Below, piece after piece: positions 17,431 to 24,584 of a stretch of DNA of 64,000 bases. The notes under the pieces are model-generated. The model saw only the letters and a list, made by a program, of their open reading frames with translations, was not told the origin of the DNA and ran no database searches. Position numbers and translations under genes: made by a program. Position 1 is the stretch's first letter; each line of letters starts with the position of its first letter. Origin of the DNA: an uncultured Clostridia bacterium. Its GTDB lineage: Bacteria; Bacillota; Clostridia; Christensenellales; CAG-917. Location of the stretch: positions 981 through 64,980 of the forward strand of contig CAKQUX010000003.1 in the NCBI GenBank assembly GCA_934277645.1, given 5' to 3'.

Positions 17431-17460
17431 ATCACGACACGATAGCCGTGATGAAATTTT
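17431..17460. terminator. Hairpin downstream of the WYL-like gene (possible bidirectional terminator)
   Basis: ATCACG-N10-CGTGAT, flanked by TTTGTT on the minus strand and TTTTTT on the plus strand. Confidence 0.4.
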
Positions 17461-17546
17461 TTCAAAATAACATGGAAACGTGTGATAGGTTTAGTGTGAA
17501 GTATATACGATTATTGAATCTACTTGAGAGTTTAGTTTTAAAATAG

Positions 17547-18590
17547 CTATTTTCCTTTTTTATCTTTTAGTGATTTAATTGTGTCTTTTGATATAGAATA
17601 AGGGGGTAAATTTATGGCAGTTAAGTATTTTCGGGTCGCTCCTGCATAATATGTGTACATCATTTTAGCTATTTTTTCAGGCTCGACAATGATTGCATCG
17701 ACGCCAAAGCGTTTAAAATAGTGCATCGCTTGATTAACCGAACAATCAAAGAAAAAAACATTACCTTCAATCTTAATTGGGTCAGGGCGATATAAATATA
17801 TTTTTTTATAAAGATATAAACCTTTGTTTGACATTATCACTTTGATAAGTTGATCTTCATCGCGATATATTGGATATTGAACGCCGCAACGAATTTGCCT
17901 TTCAAAAATTTCTTTCACATCGTTAGGCGTTTCAGCCTTCTTTGAAAGCAATGAAACGGATTTAACGTTTGCAAGACGAAGCGTATATAGATCTTGTTCG
18001 TCGGATGACAAAACGTAATTGTACAGTTCTTCTTTTGCCGAAGCAACTGCGTATATTGAAGTGTTTTTTATTCTATCGCCTTTTGTTACGATACATGCTT
18101 GTACGCCTTTTTTGATTGCTTTTTGTAAGAGATCATAGTTTTCTTTAAATATAATAATCTCTCGTTTCGGTTGTGGCCGTGAAGTGTATGAAATAAACAA
18201 TCTTCTATAAAACGATGATAGCGACTCGTTTGCCAGTATTATATTTTCAATGAAAGATACTGCTTTTTCGGATGATTTAGTCGGCTTGAACGAAAAGGTA
18301 GAGCTGTTTTTGTCGGTTATGTTTGAATTCCGTTTGGCCATAGCTTTTACCACACCATTAAAAATAGTTTCTCTATATCTGTCGGGTAAAATAGAAACGA
18401 TTTTTGAAATCTCGTCTTGCGATGTTTCTTCGTTTGCTGTGAAACCCTCGTAAAAATTAACTATCAATGTATTTATAAATGAATTAAAGTTTGGTGTTCC
18501 ATCAGCTTTAACTATATTAAAGTTTTTGCAGTCAAGTTTTAAAGTGTTTAAAACGTTTGTGGGTAAACTGATTTTTATTTTTTCTTGCAT
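17547..18590 (-). CDS. WYL-domain-like regulator (WYL + WCX-like C-terminal module; atypical N-terminus without an obvious wHTH)
   Basis: Start MQEKIK at 18590 (AAGGGGGA SD). NYDLLQKAIKKGVQACIV...ELYNYVLSSDEQDLYTLRLANVKSV fits a WYL-like pattern. The C-terminal end, FGVDAIIVEPEKIAKMM, is typical of WYL-regulator C-termini. N-terminal KIKISLPTNVLNTLKLD may be ribbon-helix-helix-like. Confidence 0.5.
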   Translation of the reverse strand: MQEKIKISLPTNVLNTLKLDCKNFNIVKADGTPNFNSFINTLIVNFYEGFTANEETSQDEISKIVSILPDRYRETIFNGVVKAMAKRNSNITDKNSSTFSFKPTKSSEKAVSFIENIILANESLSSFYRRLFISYTSRPQPKREIIIFKENYDLLQKAIKKGVQACIVTKGDRIKNTSIYAVASAKEELYNYVLSSDEQDLYTLRLANVKSVSLLSKKAETPNDVKEIFERQIRCGVQYPIYRDEDQLIKVIMSNKGLYLYKKIYLYRPDPIKIEGNVFFFDCSVNQAMHYFKRFGVDAIIVEPEKIAKMMYTYYAGATRKYLTAINLPPYSISKDTIKSLKDKKGK

Positions 18591-18611
18591 AAAAAATTTC
18601 CCCCTTCGCAA

Positions 18612-18625
18612 TTAGTGTACACTAA
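18612..18625. promoter_or_regulatory. Perfect 14-bp palindrome TTAGTGTACACTAA in the divergent promoter region (candidate operator)
   Basis: Read directly from the sequence. It lies 22-35 nt upstream of the 18590 start. A half-site-like TTAGTG recurs near 18675. Confidence 0.4.
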
Positions 18626-18764
18626 AAGGGGGCATAAATCAAACAAAAATCGACATTTTTCAACTAGTATATTTTAGTGGGCAAAATTTTTTGAGACATT
18701 GCGGTATTTGAATGTTAAAAATCTAATTTATAATGACATTAGAAACTAAAAGCGAGGTGTATTT

Positions 18765-20294
18765 ATGAATAATTTTGATTTGATTGCCGGTTACGGCAGA
18801 GAAAAAGAAGAACTTAGAAAGATTTGTGACATTTTGAACAATCGTGATGTCTATTTAAGCAAAGGGGCGGCAATGCCAAAGGGAGTAATATTCTATGGCG
18901 ATTCTGGAAATGGAAAAACGCTCTTTGCCCATGTTTTAGCAAAAGAATGCGATATGCCTATTTACATTATTAGTTTAGGGGAAACAAGTAAGCGAAATGG
19001 CGTTATCAAACAAATAAAAACCGCCTTCGACAAGGCCAATAGAAGCAAACGATACAGCGTGGTTTTTATAGATGAGCTAGACAAAATTTTGCCGAAGCAG
19101 GGTCAATTGGTGGTCAGCGATGGAGCGAATGCAATTCTTACCGAACTATTGACACTAATCGACGGTATCGATAAGAATAATAATGTATTCTTCATAGCAA
19201 CTTGCAATGATTTCTATGACATTCCGGAAACGATGCTCAGACCGGGGCGCATAGACAAAAAGATAATGTTGCCTGACCCGGATTGTAAATCCAGAAAGGA
19301 AATTTTGGCAATGTATATCAAACAATCAAATTGTGCATTTGAAGCCTCCGAGGACGTGATTGCATCGTTTACGGCAGGAATGTCGTGCTCGGCGTTGAAG
19401 ACGCTTATCAATGAATGTATTTTGGAATCCGATGAAAACAATTTTGTTTCTGAAAAATTGGTTTTTAAAAAATTAAATGAAATCAATCACCAAGATATTG
19501 AAAGAGAAAGAAGTGCGATTGAGAAAATGATTTTTAGTTGTCACAATTTAGGCTATTTTATTGTAGCAAACAGTTTCGCACCGTCGTGTGGCGGAATTAT
19601 TGATATGGATTCACATAATCTTTGCAATGACTTTTTTAATGGAATTGTTGATGATGTTAATTATGATGATGACTACGATGATGACGACGAAGAAGACGAC
19701 GATGATGATGACTATGATGAAGAAGATGATTACGACGAAGACGATGCTGATTATGACGAAGAAGACGATGAATGCAATGAAGACGAATTGAAAGAAGAAA
19801 ACGACAATGAAGCCGAAGATGTCGACGATGATGACGAACAAGATGATTGGTCTGGTCAGTATTATAGTGAAACGGATTACAGGAATGCTATATGCGTTTT
19901 GTGCGGTGGAATGATAGCGGAAAAATATGTTTTGCAAAAAACATATGATGATACCGCTTGGGATTTAGATACGATTGACAACCTTCTTTTCCGTATGTCC
20001 GAAATGGGAATGCTTGGGATGGGTTTAATTTATAACGTAAGCAGACATAAAAATATGCCTTACAGTGCAGATCGAATTTTAGCCATAAACAATAAATTTG
20101 ATGAAATAATAAGTGAATGCTATGAAAAGGCTGAAAAAATCATATCGCAAAATGTGGACTTGATTAAACTGTTGCAATGCCATTTGATAGAAGAGGGAAT
20201 TATCAAGAAAGAAAGAGCGAAAGAATTGATAGACGAATTTAAAAATCAAAAAGCATTTGGTGGCAATGTTAAAGATGAAAAAGAAAGCCGATAG
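18765..20294 (+). CDS. Soluble FtsH-like AAA+ ATPase with a degenerate (HEXXH-less) M41-like domain and a poly-Asp/Glu insertion
   Basis: Walker A GDSGNGKT, Walker B VVFIDELD, SRH ATCNDFYDIPETMLRPGRID. The M41-like part has CHNLG in place of HEaGH, CGGMIAEKYV (compare lGGRaAEe), and MSEMGMLGMG (compare yGMS..lG). No TM segments. GAGGTG SD. Confidence 0.75.
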   Translation: MNNFDLIAGYGREKEELRKICDILNNRDVYLSKGAAMPKGVIFYGDSGNGKTLFAHVLAKECDMPIYIISLGETSKRNGVIKQIKTAFDKANRSKRYSVVFIDELDKILPKQGQLVVSDGANAILTELLTLIDGIDKNNNVFFIATCNDFYDIPETMLRPGRIDKKIMLPDPDCKSRKEILAMYIKQSNCAFEASEDVIASFTAGMSCSALKTLINECILESDENNFVSEKLVFKKLNEINHQDIERERSAIEKMIFSCHNLGYFIVANSFAPSCGGIIDMDSHNLCNDFFNGIVDDVNYDDDYDDDDEEDDDDDDYDEEDDYDEDDADYDEEDDECNEDELKEENDNEAEDVDDDDEQDDWSGQYYSETDYRNAICVLCGGMIAEKYVLQKTYDDTAWDLDTIDNLLFRMSEMGMLGMGLIYNVSRHKNMPYSADRILAINNKFDEIISECYEKAEKIISQNVDLIKLLQCHLIEEGIIKKERAKELIDEFKNQKAFGGNVKDEKESR

Positions 20295-20853
20295 ATTGCG
20301 GAAAAGAGATTTTAAGAAATGTGTATTTTCGACAGTTTGCGATTGCATGCATATATTCGGCTACTCGTTAATGCCTGCAATTATTGAAACGACCTTGGAT
20401 GGAAATAGACTTATGTCTTTTGTCGCCTGTGACAATAGTAGGCAGTGCGCAATAATATATGATTATCAAAAGTTTCAAAAGGCTTTTGGTGAGCGCGATA
20501 AAGAATACAATTTGATAAGCCTTACATATATTGTTGCGCATGAAATGAGACATTATTATCAGCATAGACAAATTTTCGCTAAGGTTCCTAAAGAAAGGCG
20601 AGAGGTGGTCGACGATTGGCGGAACGACACGGAGCTTAAAATATCTTGCGAAAAGCGCGAGTATTATGGAAACGTCAGGGAAATAGACGCCTTTGCATTT
20701 GCGTATAGGTATTGTGCAAATAGGGGGCGAGTCTTGGTGCGTGATGTCGGAGTGCCAAAACACTATCGCAAAGTTATGCAAGGTTATACAAAAAAGAGCT
20801 TTGGGATTACTCCTTCAATTTTTTCAAAGAAATTTGATAAATATTTTGATTAA
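20275..20853 (+). CDS. Putative zinc metallopeptidase (HExxH; ImmA/IrrE M78-like motif arrangement)
   Basis: IVAHEMRHYYQ, plus REIDAFAFAYRY about 40 aa downstream. The start overlaps the end of the AAA gene. ATGs at 20266 and 20275 are both possible, and the track start is 20257. Confidence 0.55.
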   Translation: MKKKADRLRKRDFKKCVFSTVCDCMHIFGYSLMPAIIETTLDGNRLMSFVACDNSRQCAIIYDYQKFQKAFGERDKEYNLISLTYIVAHEMRHYYQHRQIFAKVPKERREVVDDWRNDTELKISCEKREYYGNVREIDAFAFAYRYCANRGRVLVRDVGVPKHYRKVMQGYTKKSFGITPSIFSKKFDKYFD

Positions 20854-20948
20854 ACTTCAATCAATGTGTTGTTGAATTTGATAAATACTGTTGATAGATA
20901 TTGCGTATGCATATAATAATTATTGTCGCATTGACATCCAAACAGGGA

Positions 20949-20973
20949 AAGGCAGCCTTTATAGCTGCCTTTT
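20949..20973 (+). terminator. Rho-independent terminator
   Basis: AAGGCAGC-CTTTATA-GCTGCCTTTT, about 95 nt after the 20853 stop. Confidence 0.7.
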
Positions 20974-21319: not shown

Positions 21320-22015
21320 TTATGTCGTAACTGTTAGTTTGATTTTTTTTTGCTTGTTTTGTGATTTAATTGTAGCGTGCTTCGGGGCATAATCTTTCAT
21401 TTCGGGGATAGCTCCGCCTGCGACCGCCCATAAGTATAAACTTGCGACGCTGGCATACGGCGAAAATTTTCGACGGTATTTTTCAAACAACTTTTTGTCA
21501 ATTTTTCGGTGGTGATATACCATACGAAGCCCACGCAGTATCGCCAAATCACCGTAACTAAAAATGTCGGGGCGTTCAAGGCAAAACAATAAAATCATTT
21601 CGGCGGTCCATACGCCGATACCTTTTAAAGCCGCAAGCTCTTTTATAGCTTGTTCGTCCGTCATTTTTTCGACGGATTCCAAATCGAATTCACCGCTTTC
21701 GACTTTGCTTGCAAAATCTTTTATGTATTCGGCTTTCCGAAACGTCATTCCAAACGATTGCAAATCTTCGATGCTCGCATTTGCAATGGCATGAGAATCG
21801 ACTTTGCCGAATGCCGACTGCATTCTTTGCCAAATGGTTGCTTGCGCCTTTGTAGATATCTGTTGACCGATAATACTATGCACAACGGAAGAAAACAGGT
21901 CGGTGTCTACTTCGCGATAAATTTTGCCGATAGCGTCGATGCATTCGGCAAGACGGGCATCGCGTGATTTCAGATATTCGATTTCCGTTTCGCCGTATTT
22001 GAAATAATTTGCCAT
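21320..22015 (-). CDS. HhH-GPD superfamily DNA glycosylase (DNA-3-methyladenine glycosylase II-like)
   Basis: 231 aa. LAALKGIGVWTAEMILLFCLERPDIFSYGDLAILRGL is a helix-hairpin-helix plus catalytic-Asp region, typical of AlkA-like enzymes. Confidence 0.75.
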   Translation of the reverse strand: MANYFKYGETEIEYLKSRDARLAECIDAIGKIYREVDTDLFSSVVHSIIGQQISTKAQATIWQRMQSAFGKVDSHAIANASIEDLQSFGMTFRKAEYIKDFASKVESGEFDLESVEKMTDEQAIKELAALKGIGVWTAEMILLFCLERPDIFSYGDLAILRGLRMVYHHRKIDKKLFEKYRRKFSPYASVASLYLWAVAGGAIPEMKDYAPKHATIKSQNKQKKIKLTVTT

Positions 22016-24495: not shown

Positions 24496-24584
24496 TGGCG
24501 GAAGAGATGGGATTCGAACCCATGAACCCATGCGGGTTACTGCATTTCGAGTGCAGCTCGTTATGACCACTTCGATACTCTTCC
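24496..24584 (-). tRNA. tRNA-Ser (anticodon CGA), class II with a long variable arm and encoded CCA
   Basis: Minus strand reads GGAAGAG...CTGCA-CT-CGA-AA-TGCAG...ATGGG-TTCGAAT-CCCAT-CTCTTCC-G-CCA, 89 nt. Acceptor, anticodon and T arms all pair. Confidence 0.9.

Follow-up and report, generated by a model that had tools for sequence, protein, structure and literature searches.

A WYL1-type protein and a soluble FtsH-derived pseudo-protease form a conserved divergent gene pair in gut Clostridia

A two-gene cassette with an optional third gene

Here we describe a gene cassette in a 64,000-nucleotide stretch of DNA (the window) from an uncultured Clostridia bacterium (GenBank assembly GCA_934277645.1, contig CAKQUX010000003.1, positions 981 to 64,980 of the forward strand). 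Gene A (window positions 17547-18590, minus strand) encodes a 347-aa WYL1-type protein and is transcribed away from gene B (18765-20294, plus strand), which encodes a 509-aa soluble AAA+ pseudo-protease derived from FtsH; gene C (20275-20853, plus strand), which encodes a 192-aa HExxH zincin-like protein, starts within the end of B. What is conserved is the divergent pair of A and B along with the spacer that separates them, and C is an optional add-on. The original prediction, made from the sequence alone, had put forward all three genes as one system, and the three do recur together, in 26 loci, but C is present in about 20% of the species loci and the two-gene unit takes the place of the three-gene one. 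The combination of A and B is apparently undescribed, our literature search having returned no account of a ribbon-helix-helix (RHH) WYL protein paired with a soluble, dead FtsH, and the cassette appears to be a WYL-regulated accessory element with undescribed cargo. The expectation that it would match no named system agrees with the output of PADLOC, which finds none for any component.

To describe the distribution of the cassette, we carried out a profile scan of one genome per GTDB species, which returned 50 loci. All of these come from metagenome-assembled genomes (MAGs) of gut Clostridia, among them Coproplasma, Scatosoma, Gallimonas, Limadaptatus, Ornithoclostridium and genomes labelled 'Christensenellaceae', and in about 45 of the 50 B divergently adjoins A. 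Across loci, the pairwise identities between A homologs are correlated with those between the corresponding B homologs (r = 0.85). The pair is also found in distant lineages in which A is 31-32% identical, represented by L078 (A-like protein with hhalign E 4e-38 and 32% identity, B-like protein P0108) and by L073-L075, where L-numbers denote loci and P-numbers denote proteins in this survey.

The surroundings of the cassette are varied, with 143 flanking proteins distributed over 115 Pfam families, mostly of transport and metabolism and with occasional transposases and methyltransferases, so that no consistent defence island is seen. For six related species, nucleotide identity of 85-91% is restricted to the 2.55-kb cassette, the flanks are unrelated, and the homology hardly reaches beyond the two stop codons, with the exception of about 150-200 nt on the B side in two pairs and of a further segment of about 400 nt in L011 and L032. 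Within the window's species, all 10 contigs that share a neighbouring HhH-GPD protein carry the identical arrangement, and a test of presence and absence at the strain level is therefore uninformative. The genes dapB-dapA lie a few kb from the cassette in the window and in L002-L004 (53-67% identity). A scan of IMG/VR with the A profile gave no relative.

Gene A encodes a WYL1-type protein

The open reading frame (ORF) of gene A spans 17547-18611 on the minus strand, and its start was set at the ATG at 18590 through alignment with 31 homologs. The protein (isoelectric point, pI, 9.4) has no Pfam hit, including none to a helix-turn-helix (HTH) family, and the same absence of Pfam hits holds for the approximately 290 homologs that share roughly 50% identity or more. 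It matches a WYL model of PADLOC at 2.3e-5, and the profile of its family matches a single PDB sequence, that of WYL1 (6oaw, E 2.2e-11). The AlphaFold (AF2) model of the protein, with a predicted local distance difference test score (pLDDT) of 86.9 and a predicted template modelling score (pTM) of 0.79, folds into a beta-alpha-alpha unit that occurs twice, a five-strand barrel and an alpha/beta C-terminal domain. Foldseek places 6oaw at the top for this model (about 376 columns, E 5e-14, template modelling score 0.67), followed by PafBC, DriD, CapW and BrxR, for which the WYL and C-terminal parts match (9fnd, 9cu3, 7tzv, 8tp8, 9c5g and 7qfz, E 7e-8 to 8e-4). These nearest structures after WYL1 belong to WYL regulators that, according to their PDB titles, were solved with ssDNA (single-stranded DNA) or with RNA polymerase (DriD, CapW, PafBC).

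In the structure of WYL1, a pair of RHH motifs precedes an Sm-like WYL domain and a C-terminal domain that dimerises, and WYL1 binds single-stranded RNA (ssRNA) with high affinity (PMC6547453). The model of A suggests the same architecture, with tandem RHH motifs, a WYL barrel and a C-terminal (WCX-like) dimerisation domain, and shows RHH motifs where a winged HTH N-terminus would otherwise be expected. We therefore have agreement with two proposals of the original prediction, namely that the product is a WYL regulator, which is borne out by the 6oaw profile match and by the AlphaFold and Foldseek results, and that its N-terminus might be of the ribbon-helix-helix type, which had been a guess. 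On the strength of the model, A is a WYL-family protein that is predicted to act as a sensor and transcription regulator.

The likeness to RspWYL1 (6oaw), an accessory protein of type VI-D CRISPR-Cas13d, extends to the three-part architecture and to the occurrence of both proteins in gut Clostridia. They differ in that their identity is 17-18% and that gene A stands back to back with an AAA+ gene, the spacer between the two carrying conserved boxes; this arrangement suggests that A is a transcription factor, a role that is not known for WYL1. No Cas13d occurs in the window or in the loci inspected and no CRISPR array lies beside A, the sole CRISPR neighbour being the Cas9 of L005. With PafBC, DriD, CapW and BrxR, the similarities are in the WYL and C-terminal folds, in a divergently placed regulator gene and in alternative cargos; these proteins carry a winged HTH in place of the RHH motifs of A, and the cargo of A falls outside the known defence systems and DNA-damage regulons.

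Gene B encodes a soluble FtsH derivative with a dead protease site

Gene B (pI 4.3) matches the Pfam families AAA (1.3e-25) and Peptidase_M41 (PF01434; 3.3e-9, 37.3 bits against a cut-off of 29.9), and the PF01434 match is precomputed for most members of its family. The C-terminal part of the M41-like domain, residues 366-487 (19860-20225, plus strand), corresponds to positions 56-190 of the PF01434 profile. The NCBIfam model FtsH_fam (1.9e-48) aligns its positions 160-432 of 598 with residues 3-268, and because the protein starts where the cytosolic AAA module of FtsH starts, it is without the N-terminal transmembrane anchor, as it is without the periplasmic domain. Among the 5.8 billion proteins searched, the family forms 247 clusters, mostly of 430-530 aa and from Clostridia MAGs, and its source names, where given, are 'AAA family ATPase', 'ATP-binding protein' and 'cell division protease FtsH'.

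The ATPase is of the classical AAA type, with Walker A (GDSGNGKT, residues 45-52, 18897-18920, plus strand), Walker B (VVFIDELD, residues 99-106, 19059-19082, plus strand) and a second region of homology with arginine fingers; G45-T52, D103/E104, the sensor-1 residue N148 and R159/R162 are invariant in 25 sequences. The site that would bind zinc in FtsH reads CHNLG (residues 259-263, 19539-19553, plus strand) instead of HEAGH, and it aligns column for column with the AYHEAGH of the intact paralogs in L005 and L048. The family form of this site is AC[RH]N[IL]G, and HExxH is found there in none of 43 members. The description of B as a membrane-less, FtsH-like AAA+ protein with a dead protease site is thus upheld by Pfam, by FtsH_fam and by the zinc-site alignment.

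The label 'unfoldase', which had been attached to the same protein, is doubtful in view of the pore loop. In HMMER alignments to p97 and VAT, the pore-loop-1 region lies at residues about 71-79 (GETSKRNGV, 18975-19001, plus strand) and has K-R-N-G in place of the M-W-F-G of p97 D2, with no aromatic residue. The profile of the B family puts the aromatic pair of p97 and VAT in insert states and its pore-1 consensus is variable, so the aromatic-hydrophobic pair is absent or variable across the family. A further feature is an acidic insert rich in D, E and Y inside the M41-like domain, at residues about 296-358 (19650-19838, plus strand), with 50 D/E held by residues 286-365; of 30 family members measured, every one has such an insert (13-86 residues), and so do the distant homologs P0108 and P0099. 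Taken at the level of sequence, B looks like an ATPase under selection that would neither cut nor thread its substrates in the canonical way.

With FtsH (M41), B shares a classical-clade AAA module followed by an M41 domain. The plant FtsHi pseudo-proteases reportedly resemble B in being without the HExxH zinc site (PMC8197885). Differences from both FtsH and FtsHi are the absence of a transmembrane and periplasmic part, the absence of the pore-1 aromatic residue, the acidic insert in M41, and the bacterial, cassette-encoded and WYL-regulated setting of B. A separate case is P0118 (477 aa, L077:5001-6434), which is soluble and FtsH-like, retains HEIGH intact and is encoded in a phage-like stretch together with a DNA ligase, a topoisomerase, a GIY-YIG gene and many small ORFs; soluble derivatives of FtsH can therefore retain an active site and can be found in mobile surroundings as well.

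Conserved boxes and putative promoters in the A-B spacer

We compared the 174-bp divergent spacer of the window with its counterparts in an alignment of 32 intergenic regions, which contains columns that are at least 90% conserved across genera. An inferred promoter of A (PA; 18614-18642, minus strand) consists of the -35 hexamer TTGATT (18637-18642), a 17-nt spacer and the -10 hexamer TACACT (18614-18619), the latter being TACAAT in most loci. Box 1, AAAAGGGGGCATAAATCAA (18624-18642), spans most of the PA spacer and the -35 hexamer. Box 2, TTTTAGTGGGCAAAATTTTTT (18672-18692, plus strand), appears in the alignment as a second copy of GGGG(G/T)CA and lies about 50 nt upstream of the -10 element of the B promoter (PB), a TATAAT at 18729-18734 (plus strand) with no consensus -35 at 17 nt. 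Between Box 2 and this -10 element is a conserved ATTGCGGT (18698-18705, plus strand), replaced by CTGCCAATTGA in some lineages, which could be an activator or sigma-factor contact, and the ribosome-binding site of B is GCGAGGTG (18752-18759, plus strand).

The strict box motif has 77 matches in 625 kb of loci, 71 of them inside spacers. Both boxes also precede a different cargo, the genes c3 and c4 described below, in L020, L026, L028, L030 and L034, and two copies of a related GGGTACA repeat are present in the spacer of the lineage that carries RtcB. This pattern suggests that the two GGGG(G/T)CA boxes are putative operators of A.

Gene C is a small zincin-like protein

The ORF of gene C opens at 20257, and homologs align from the ATG at 20275, which gives a protein of 192 aa (pI 9.5). 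Its start overlaps the stop of B by 20 nt, and GGTGG is found 10 nt upstream of the start. The HEMRH motif is encoded at 20539-20553 and E136-x-D138 at 20680-20688, and H89, E90, H93, E136, D138 and A139 are invariant in 13 homologs. At normal thresholds the protein falls into no family of Pfam, NCBIfam, PADLOC or PHROGs, and its own family is small, with 6 clusters in a word-indexed search and 54 clusters, counted at 50% identity, in an exhaustive HMMER search of 1.84 billion representatives.

The original prediction had likened C to the ImmA/IrrE (M78) peptidases, and we take the combination of HExxH with E-x-[DE]-A-x-x-F-A to resemble the M78 motif pattern. This placement is not supported, as PF06114 (M78) matches none of the 13 homologs at E up to 10 and none of 10 distant relatives, and matches to DUF6782 and SprT-like models are found instead. 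DUF6782, a putative metallopeptidase family, is matched weakly by 11 of the 13 homologs (best E 0.0042), relatives of C reach 26.5 bits against the Pfam gathering cut-off of 27, and more distant relatives match DUF6782, SprT-like, BSP or phage-metallopeptidase models. C does carry HExxH and a downstream Glu (H89, E90, H93, E136), but since this motif is common to many zincin families it is not specific to M78. With the DUF6782 and SprT-like zincins (Pfam clan Peptidase_MA), C has in common the HExxH, a downstream helix with an acidic ligand and a small size; it differs in its scores below the Pfam cut-offs, in forming a family of its own and in being strictly tied to B. From these comparisons, the most fitting description of C is that of a small zincin-like protein with a family to itself, which is a probable neighbour of DUF6782 and not a member of it.

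All of the motif strings named for the three genes (GDSGNGKT, VVFIDELD, ATCNDFYDIPETMLRPGRID, CHNLG at residue 259, CGGMIAEKYVL, TAWDLDTIDNLLFRMSEMGMLGMG, HEMRH at residue 89 and EIDAFAFA) were verified in the translations of the window's ORFs, as were the genes themselves at their coordinates. For EIDAFAFA the presence downstream of HEMRH was correct and the spacing of about 40 aa was not, E136 being 47 residues past H89.

Third genes and variants of the cassette

Of the first 55 loci, 9 have C directly after B, corresponding to 7 species-level cassettes, and a search with C added 17 metagenome loci, every one of which shows the same order. In these 26 loci C never occurs without B directly upstream, and the overlap or gap between the two genes is 4-20 nt in most cases. 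Other genes occupy the third position elsewhere. L005 and L048 have B followed by B', a soluble FtsH paralog of 407-408 aa with an intact HEAGH, a Walker B of the form IDDID and no arginine fingers; B' is thus a mirror image of B, which suggests a mixed assembly of ATPase and protease subunits. At L015 a gene for an Smr-domain protein overlaps the B stop, in four loci B is followed by a 512-572-aa protein with a sigma-70 region-4 HTH, and a C-terminal motif of c3 recurs in the proteins encoded after B at L049 and L053. Many loci have no co-directional gene after B.

The cargo facing A can also be exchanged. In L020, L026, L028, L030 and L034, A faces two unrelated, uncharacterised genes, c3 and c4, as at L028:5113-6821. 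Their products have about 157 aa and about 331 aa, respectively, that of c4 has an acidic tail rich in D, E and Y at its C-terminus, and neither c3 nor c4 has a Pfam, PADLOC or PHROG match. More widely, PADLOC assigns no system to C, c3, c4, the L049 and L053 proteins or the Smr protein, and PHROGs has no family for A, C, c3, c4, c8 or the L049 and L053 proteins. In two related MAGs from rabbit gut, a tRNA-Lys(UUU) gene is located between the B promoter and the B start (L012:2947-3023 and L032:5404-5480). At L073:2663-6299, and likewise at L074 and L075, a 322-aa A homolog (hhalign E 4.5e-30) is divergent from a gene for the RNA ligase RtcB (408 aa), which is followed by a 432-aa B homolog, the RtcB stop overlapping the B start by 17 nt. 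The L073 organism is very AT-rich (22% G+C), and the cassette there adjoins genes with links to RNA, namely NYN/OST-HTH, a 2-thiouracil desulfurase-like gene and a SpoU methylase. A YgjP-like zincin near the RtcB locus was considered as a relative of C and rejected (hhalign probability 0.5%).

Some cassettes are disrupted. At L005:4844-13443 (MAG label Muribaculaceae), A is broken up into two ORFs and is probably a pseudogene, and B and B' are followed by a type II CRISPR-Cas locus (Cas9, Cas1, Cas2); A is disrupted in L049 as well. At L071:4228-5579, C is present and B is reduced to its C-terminal third (a 258-aa ORF), with no A gene found upstream, and this locus looks like a decayed cassette. 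A appears to be split also at L050:7001-10731, where an N-terminal part of 213 aa and a C-terminal part of 127 aa are parted by the 854-aa gene c7, which also adjoins A in L053 and L020. A second regulator, of the canonical WYL+WCX type (324 aa, with Pfam WYL and WCX), is convergent to C at L002:8091-9065 and in L003 and L004, where it is followed by a DUF1351 gene and then by dapB-dapA; DUF1351 is presumably a phage-associated family.

The locus in the window

The window is chromosomal, with dapB, IMP dehydrogenase, bipA and adhE near the cassette, and its G+C falls to 0.32-0.38 over 17-21 kb, compared with about 0.40-0.47 in most of the window. A terminator-like hairpin 3' of gene A (17431-17452, minus strand) was called by a terminator scan as an 8-bp stem followed by a T-run. 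Downstream of C, a hairpin (AAAGGCAGC...GCTGCCTTTT, 20948-20973, plus strand) was read by eye as a probable terminator and is not called by the strict terminator scan. Rfam gives only the tRNA as structured RNA in the region.

An HhH-GPD DNA glycosylase gene (21320-22015, minus strand) is convergent with C and lies 467 nt downstream of it; its association with the cassette holds in all 10 contigs of the window's species and not in other species. Beyond it, the segment 22286-24126 (minus strand; G+C 0.30-0.34) carries two paralogs (about 190-200 aa, one of them with a match to DUF6883); a small ORF of 74-128 aa comes after each of them, and the arrangement resembles toxin-immunity pairs. These genes sit between the cassette and a tRNA-Ser(CGA) gene at 24496-24584. 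Regarding the ends of a possible island, no direct repeat of 11 nt or more of the tRNA-Ser sequence (24496-24584) and no att-like repeat was found within 10-34 kb, and no integrase was noticed among the ORFs inspected near the cassette.

Discussion

The reading of these observations that we favour, at a probability of about 45%, is that of a self-contained, inducible cassette gated by nucleic-acid damage or by an invader, in which B and C act as an ATPase-peptidase pair. Under this reading, A would bind the two GGGG(G/T)CA boxes as a dimer, repressing its own promoter from Box 1 and controlling the cargo gene from Box 2, which is upstream of a promoter with only a -10 element. When a single-stranded nucleic acid (ssDNA or damaged RNA) binds to the WYL domain of A, this control would be switched. 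B would be an ATP-driven hexameric platform or remodeller and not a processive threading protease, with its M41-like ring serving assembly and its acidic D/E/Y insert serving as a docking or mimic surface. C, a basic protein that the cassette would have gained in the window's lineage and that would be translationally coupled to B, would dock on B and supply a peptidase site in trans, and a similar trans logic may apply to the loci in which B is followed by B', a paralog with a dead ATPase and an intact protease. The sequences establish the domain identities, the degenerate sites, the gene linkage and the conserved boxes; we infer the DNA binding of A, the nature of the signal, the B-C complex and the physiological role. 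The opposite charges of the proteins (pI 9.4 for A and 9.5 for C, 4.3 for B), the coupling of the genes and the complementarity of B and B' fit a B-C complex and do not prove it.

Several observations weigh against the favoured reading. Most cassettes have no peptidase partner adjoining B, so proteolysis cannot be the general output of B. The assignment of C as a metallopeptidase has as its sole basis the invariant HExxH...E and Pfam matches below threshold, and the structure model of C is poor (pLDDT 57.5) and gives no fold match. WYL1 is not established as a transcription factor and its RHH is reported to disfavour double-stranded DNA (PMC6547453), so that A might act on RNA instead of on the boxes. 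A simple promoter scan calls neither PA nor PB in the window, and the PA call therefore rests on comparative inference.

The cassette can be compared with other systems that combine an ATPase with a protease or a sensor with a stress operon. IetAS of Gao et al. 2020 is reportedly a defence system made up of an AAA+ ATPase and a separate protease, and cassettes with C likewise have an ATPase and a separate protease side by side; IetA models are also the best PADLOC matches of B (8e-19). However, the score of B against the NCBIfam IteA model is 53.2 compared with a cut-off of 510, IetA has no M41 domain, and the cassette holds no S8 subtilisin partner of the IetS type, C being a zincin. The pairs of B and B' recall complexes that mix active and inactive FtsH subunits. 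The Rtc operon, whose ligand-binding regulator turns it on in response to tRNA fragments (PMC7790460), resembles the cassette in having a ligand-sensing regulator divergent from or upstream of a stress operon; in L073-L075 the operon under A does contain RtcB. RtcR is a CARF sigma-54 activator, whereas A is an RHH-WYL protein, and RtcA is absent from the cassette, as is RtcB from the window and most loci. We also considered the MoxR-vWA-FtsH ternary conflict systems (PMC7159879) and rejected them, as the cassette has no MoxR or vWA genes and the FtsH-type component is of another architecture. None of the known systems compared here accommodates the whole cassette as a member.

As to the role of the cassette, phage defence and the repair of RNA or DNA damage are not separated by the data. 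It is possible, though we think it doubtful, that the cassette is an anti-phage system of the abortive-infection type, with A as a gatekeeper like BrxR or CapW, B as the NTPase core, and C, B', Smr, a restriction endonuclease-like c8 and c3-like proteins as interchangeable effectors. WYL regulators gate BREX and CBASS, and BrxR and CapW are structurally near A (PMC9122588). Cassette-like mobility and variable third genes favour such a conflict system: the third position varies in an effector-like manner between a peptidase, an Smr nuclease and an HTH-plus-nuclease-like protein, and the high identity in six species is confined to the 2.55-kb cassette. The Cas9 of L005 and a GmrSD beside L078, the IetA matches of B and the low G+C of the region point in the same direction. 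A defence role, which the original prediction had proposed, has nevertheless not been shown: PADLOC assigns none of the components to a system, the genes around the cassette serve mostly everyday metabolism and transport, the cassette itself is fixed in the window's species (10 of 10 contigs) and not found in IMG/VR, A, at about 50-67% identity between genera, is more conserved than is usual for a defence gene, and most loci are without an effector-like third gene. Some variants point instead to RNA repair, namely those with RtcB, tRNA-Lys and Smr, and these together with the RNA binding of WYL1 favour an RNA-damage or translation-stress response akin to RtcR-RtcBA, in which A would sense broken or single-stranded RNA and induce B to clear or remodel RNA-protein complexes such as ribosomes and tRNA complexes, and RtcB, tRNA-Lys, Smr or the peptidase would be lineage-specific helpers. 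We consider this response rather unlikely. RtcB between the promoter and the B homolog in L073-L075, tRNA-Lys(UUU) between the B promoter and B in L012 and L032, the Smr-domain gene overlapping the B stop in L015, the high affinity of WYL1 for ssRNA (PMC6547453) and the sensing of tRNA fragments by the Rtc regulator (PMC7790460) all speak for it. The RtcB linkage, however, is limited to one lineage, the tRNA-Lys to two related loci and Smr to one locus, none of the three is in the window, and the solved WYL transcription factors nearest to A after WYL1 bind ssDNA. In addition, an FtsH-like ATPase is not known to have a role in RNA repair.

The high conservation of the cassette and its ordinary neighbours would in turn favour a lineage-specific stress module. 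In its fullest form this is a vertically inherited housekeeping or proteostasis module, with B as a regulatory FtsH paralog, perhaps modulating the membrane FtsH or assembling with it, and A as its dedicated regulator, and we regard it as unlikely. Within one assemblage of gut Clostridia, which includes Coproplasma, Scatosoma and Gallimonas, at least 50 species representatives carry the pair, the distance matrices of A and B are congruent (r = 0.85), the cassette is near dapB-dapA in the window and in L002-L004, and it is fixed within the species, absent from the viral contigs searched (IMG/VR) and set among ordinary genes. On the other hand, flanks differ between species whose cassettes are about 90% identical, the cargo is swapped for c3-c4 in 5 loci, A is disrupted in L005 and L049 and B truncated in L071, and the G+C of the region is low. 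Less probable still is a switch of the ImmA/IrrE type, in which C, as an M78 peptidase, would cleave the regulator A on a signal as in CapP-CapH and ImmA-ImmR. C is indeed encoded in one cassette with a regulator. Yet no homolog of C matches Pfam M78 even at E up to 10, the relatives being DUF6782 and SprT-like, and C is missing from about 80% of A-B cassettes, so the regulation of A cannot depend on it. C also tracks B and not A, as in L071, where C occurs with a B remnant and no A, and A is a WYL protein and not a repressor of the Xre/CI type, no such repressor adjoining C.

WYL-regulated cassettes are a recognised means of gating costly responses such as BREX, CBASS and DNA-damage regulons. 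The cassette described here joins to cargo found in no catalogue the rare RHH-type WYL1 architecture, which to our knowledge has so far been known only as a Cas13d helper. If A is indeed a transcription factor or a sensor of RNA damage, WYL1-type proteins would have a function outside CRISPR. In B, an invariant ATPase has been kept while the protease site and the pore-1 aromatic residue have been lost, and partners may restore a protease in trans in some genomes. More speculatively, and with the odds against it, A-B may be an unrecognised stress pathway of gut Firmicutes, in which a WYL1-type sensor of damaged ssRNA or ssDNA switches on a platform exapted from FtsH, an ATP-driven, soluble AAA+ pseudo-protease of a new class that no longer has a cutting site or a threading loop and recruits one of several exchangeable enzymes (a zincin, an active FtsH paralog, Smr or RtcB) to damaged RNA-protein or DNA-protein complexes; if this is true, bacteria would have in B their first counterpart to the FtsHi pseudo-proteases of plants. 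Poorly studied Clostridia of the human and animal gut commonly carry the cassette, and B is a tractable model in bacteria for FtsH subunits of the pseudo-protease kind and for the evolution of split ATPase-peptidase systems.

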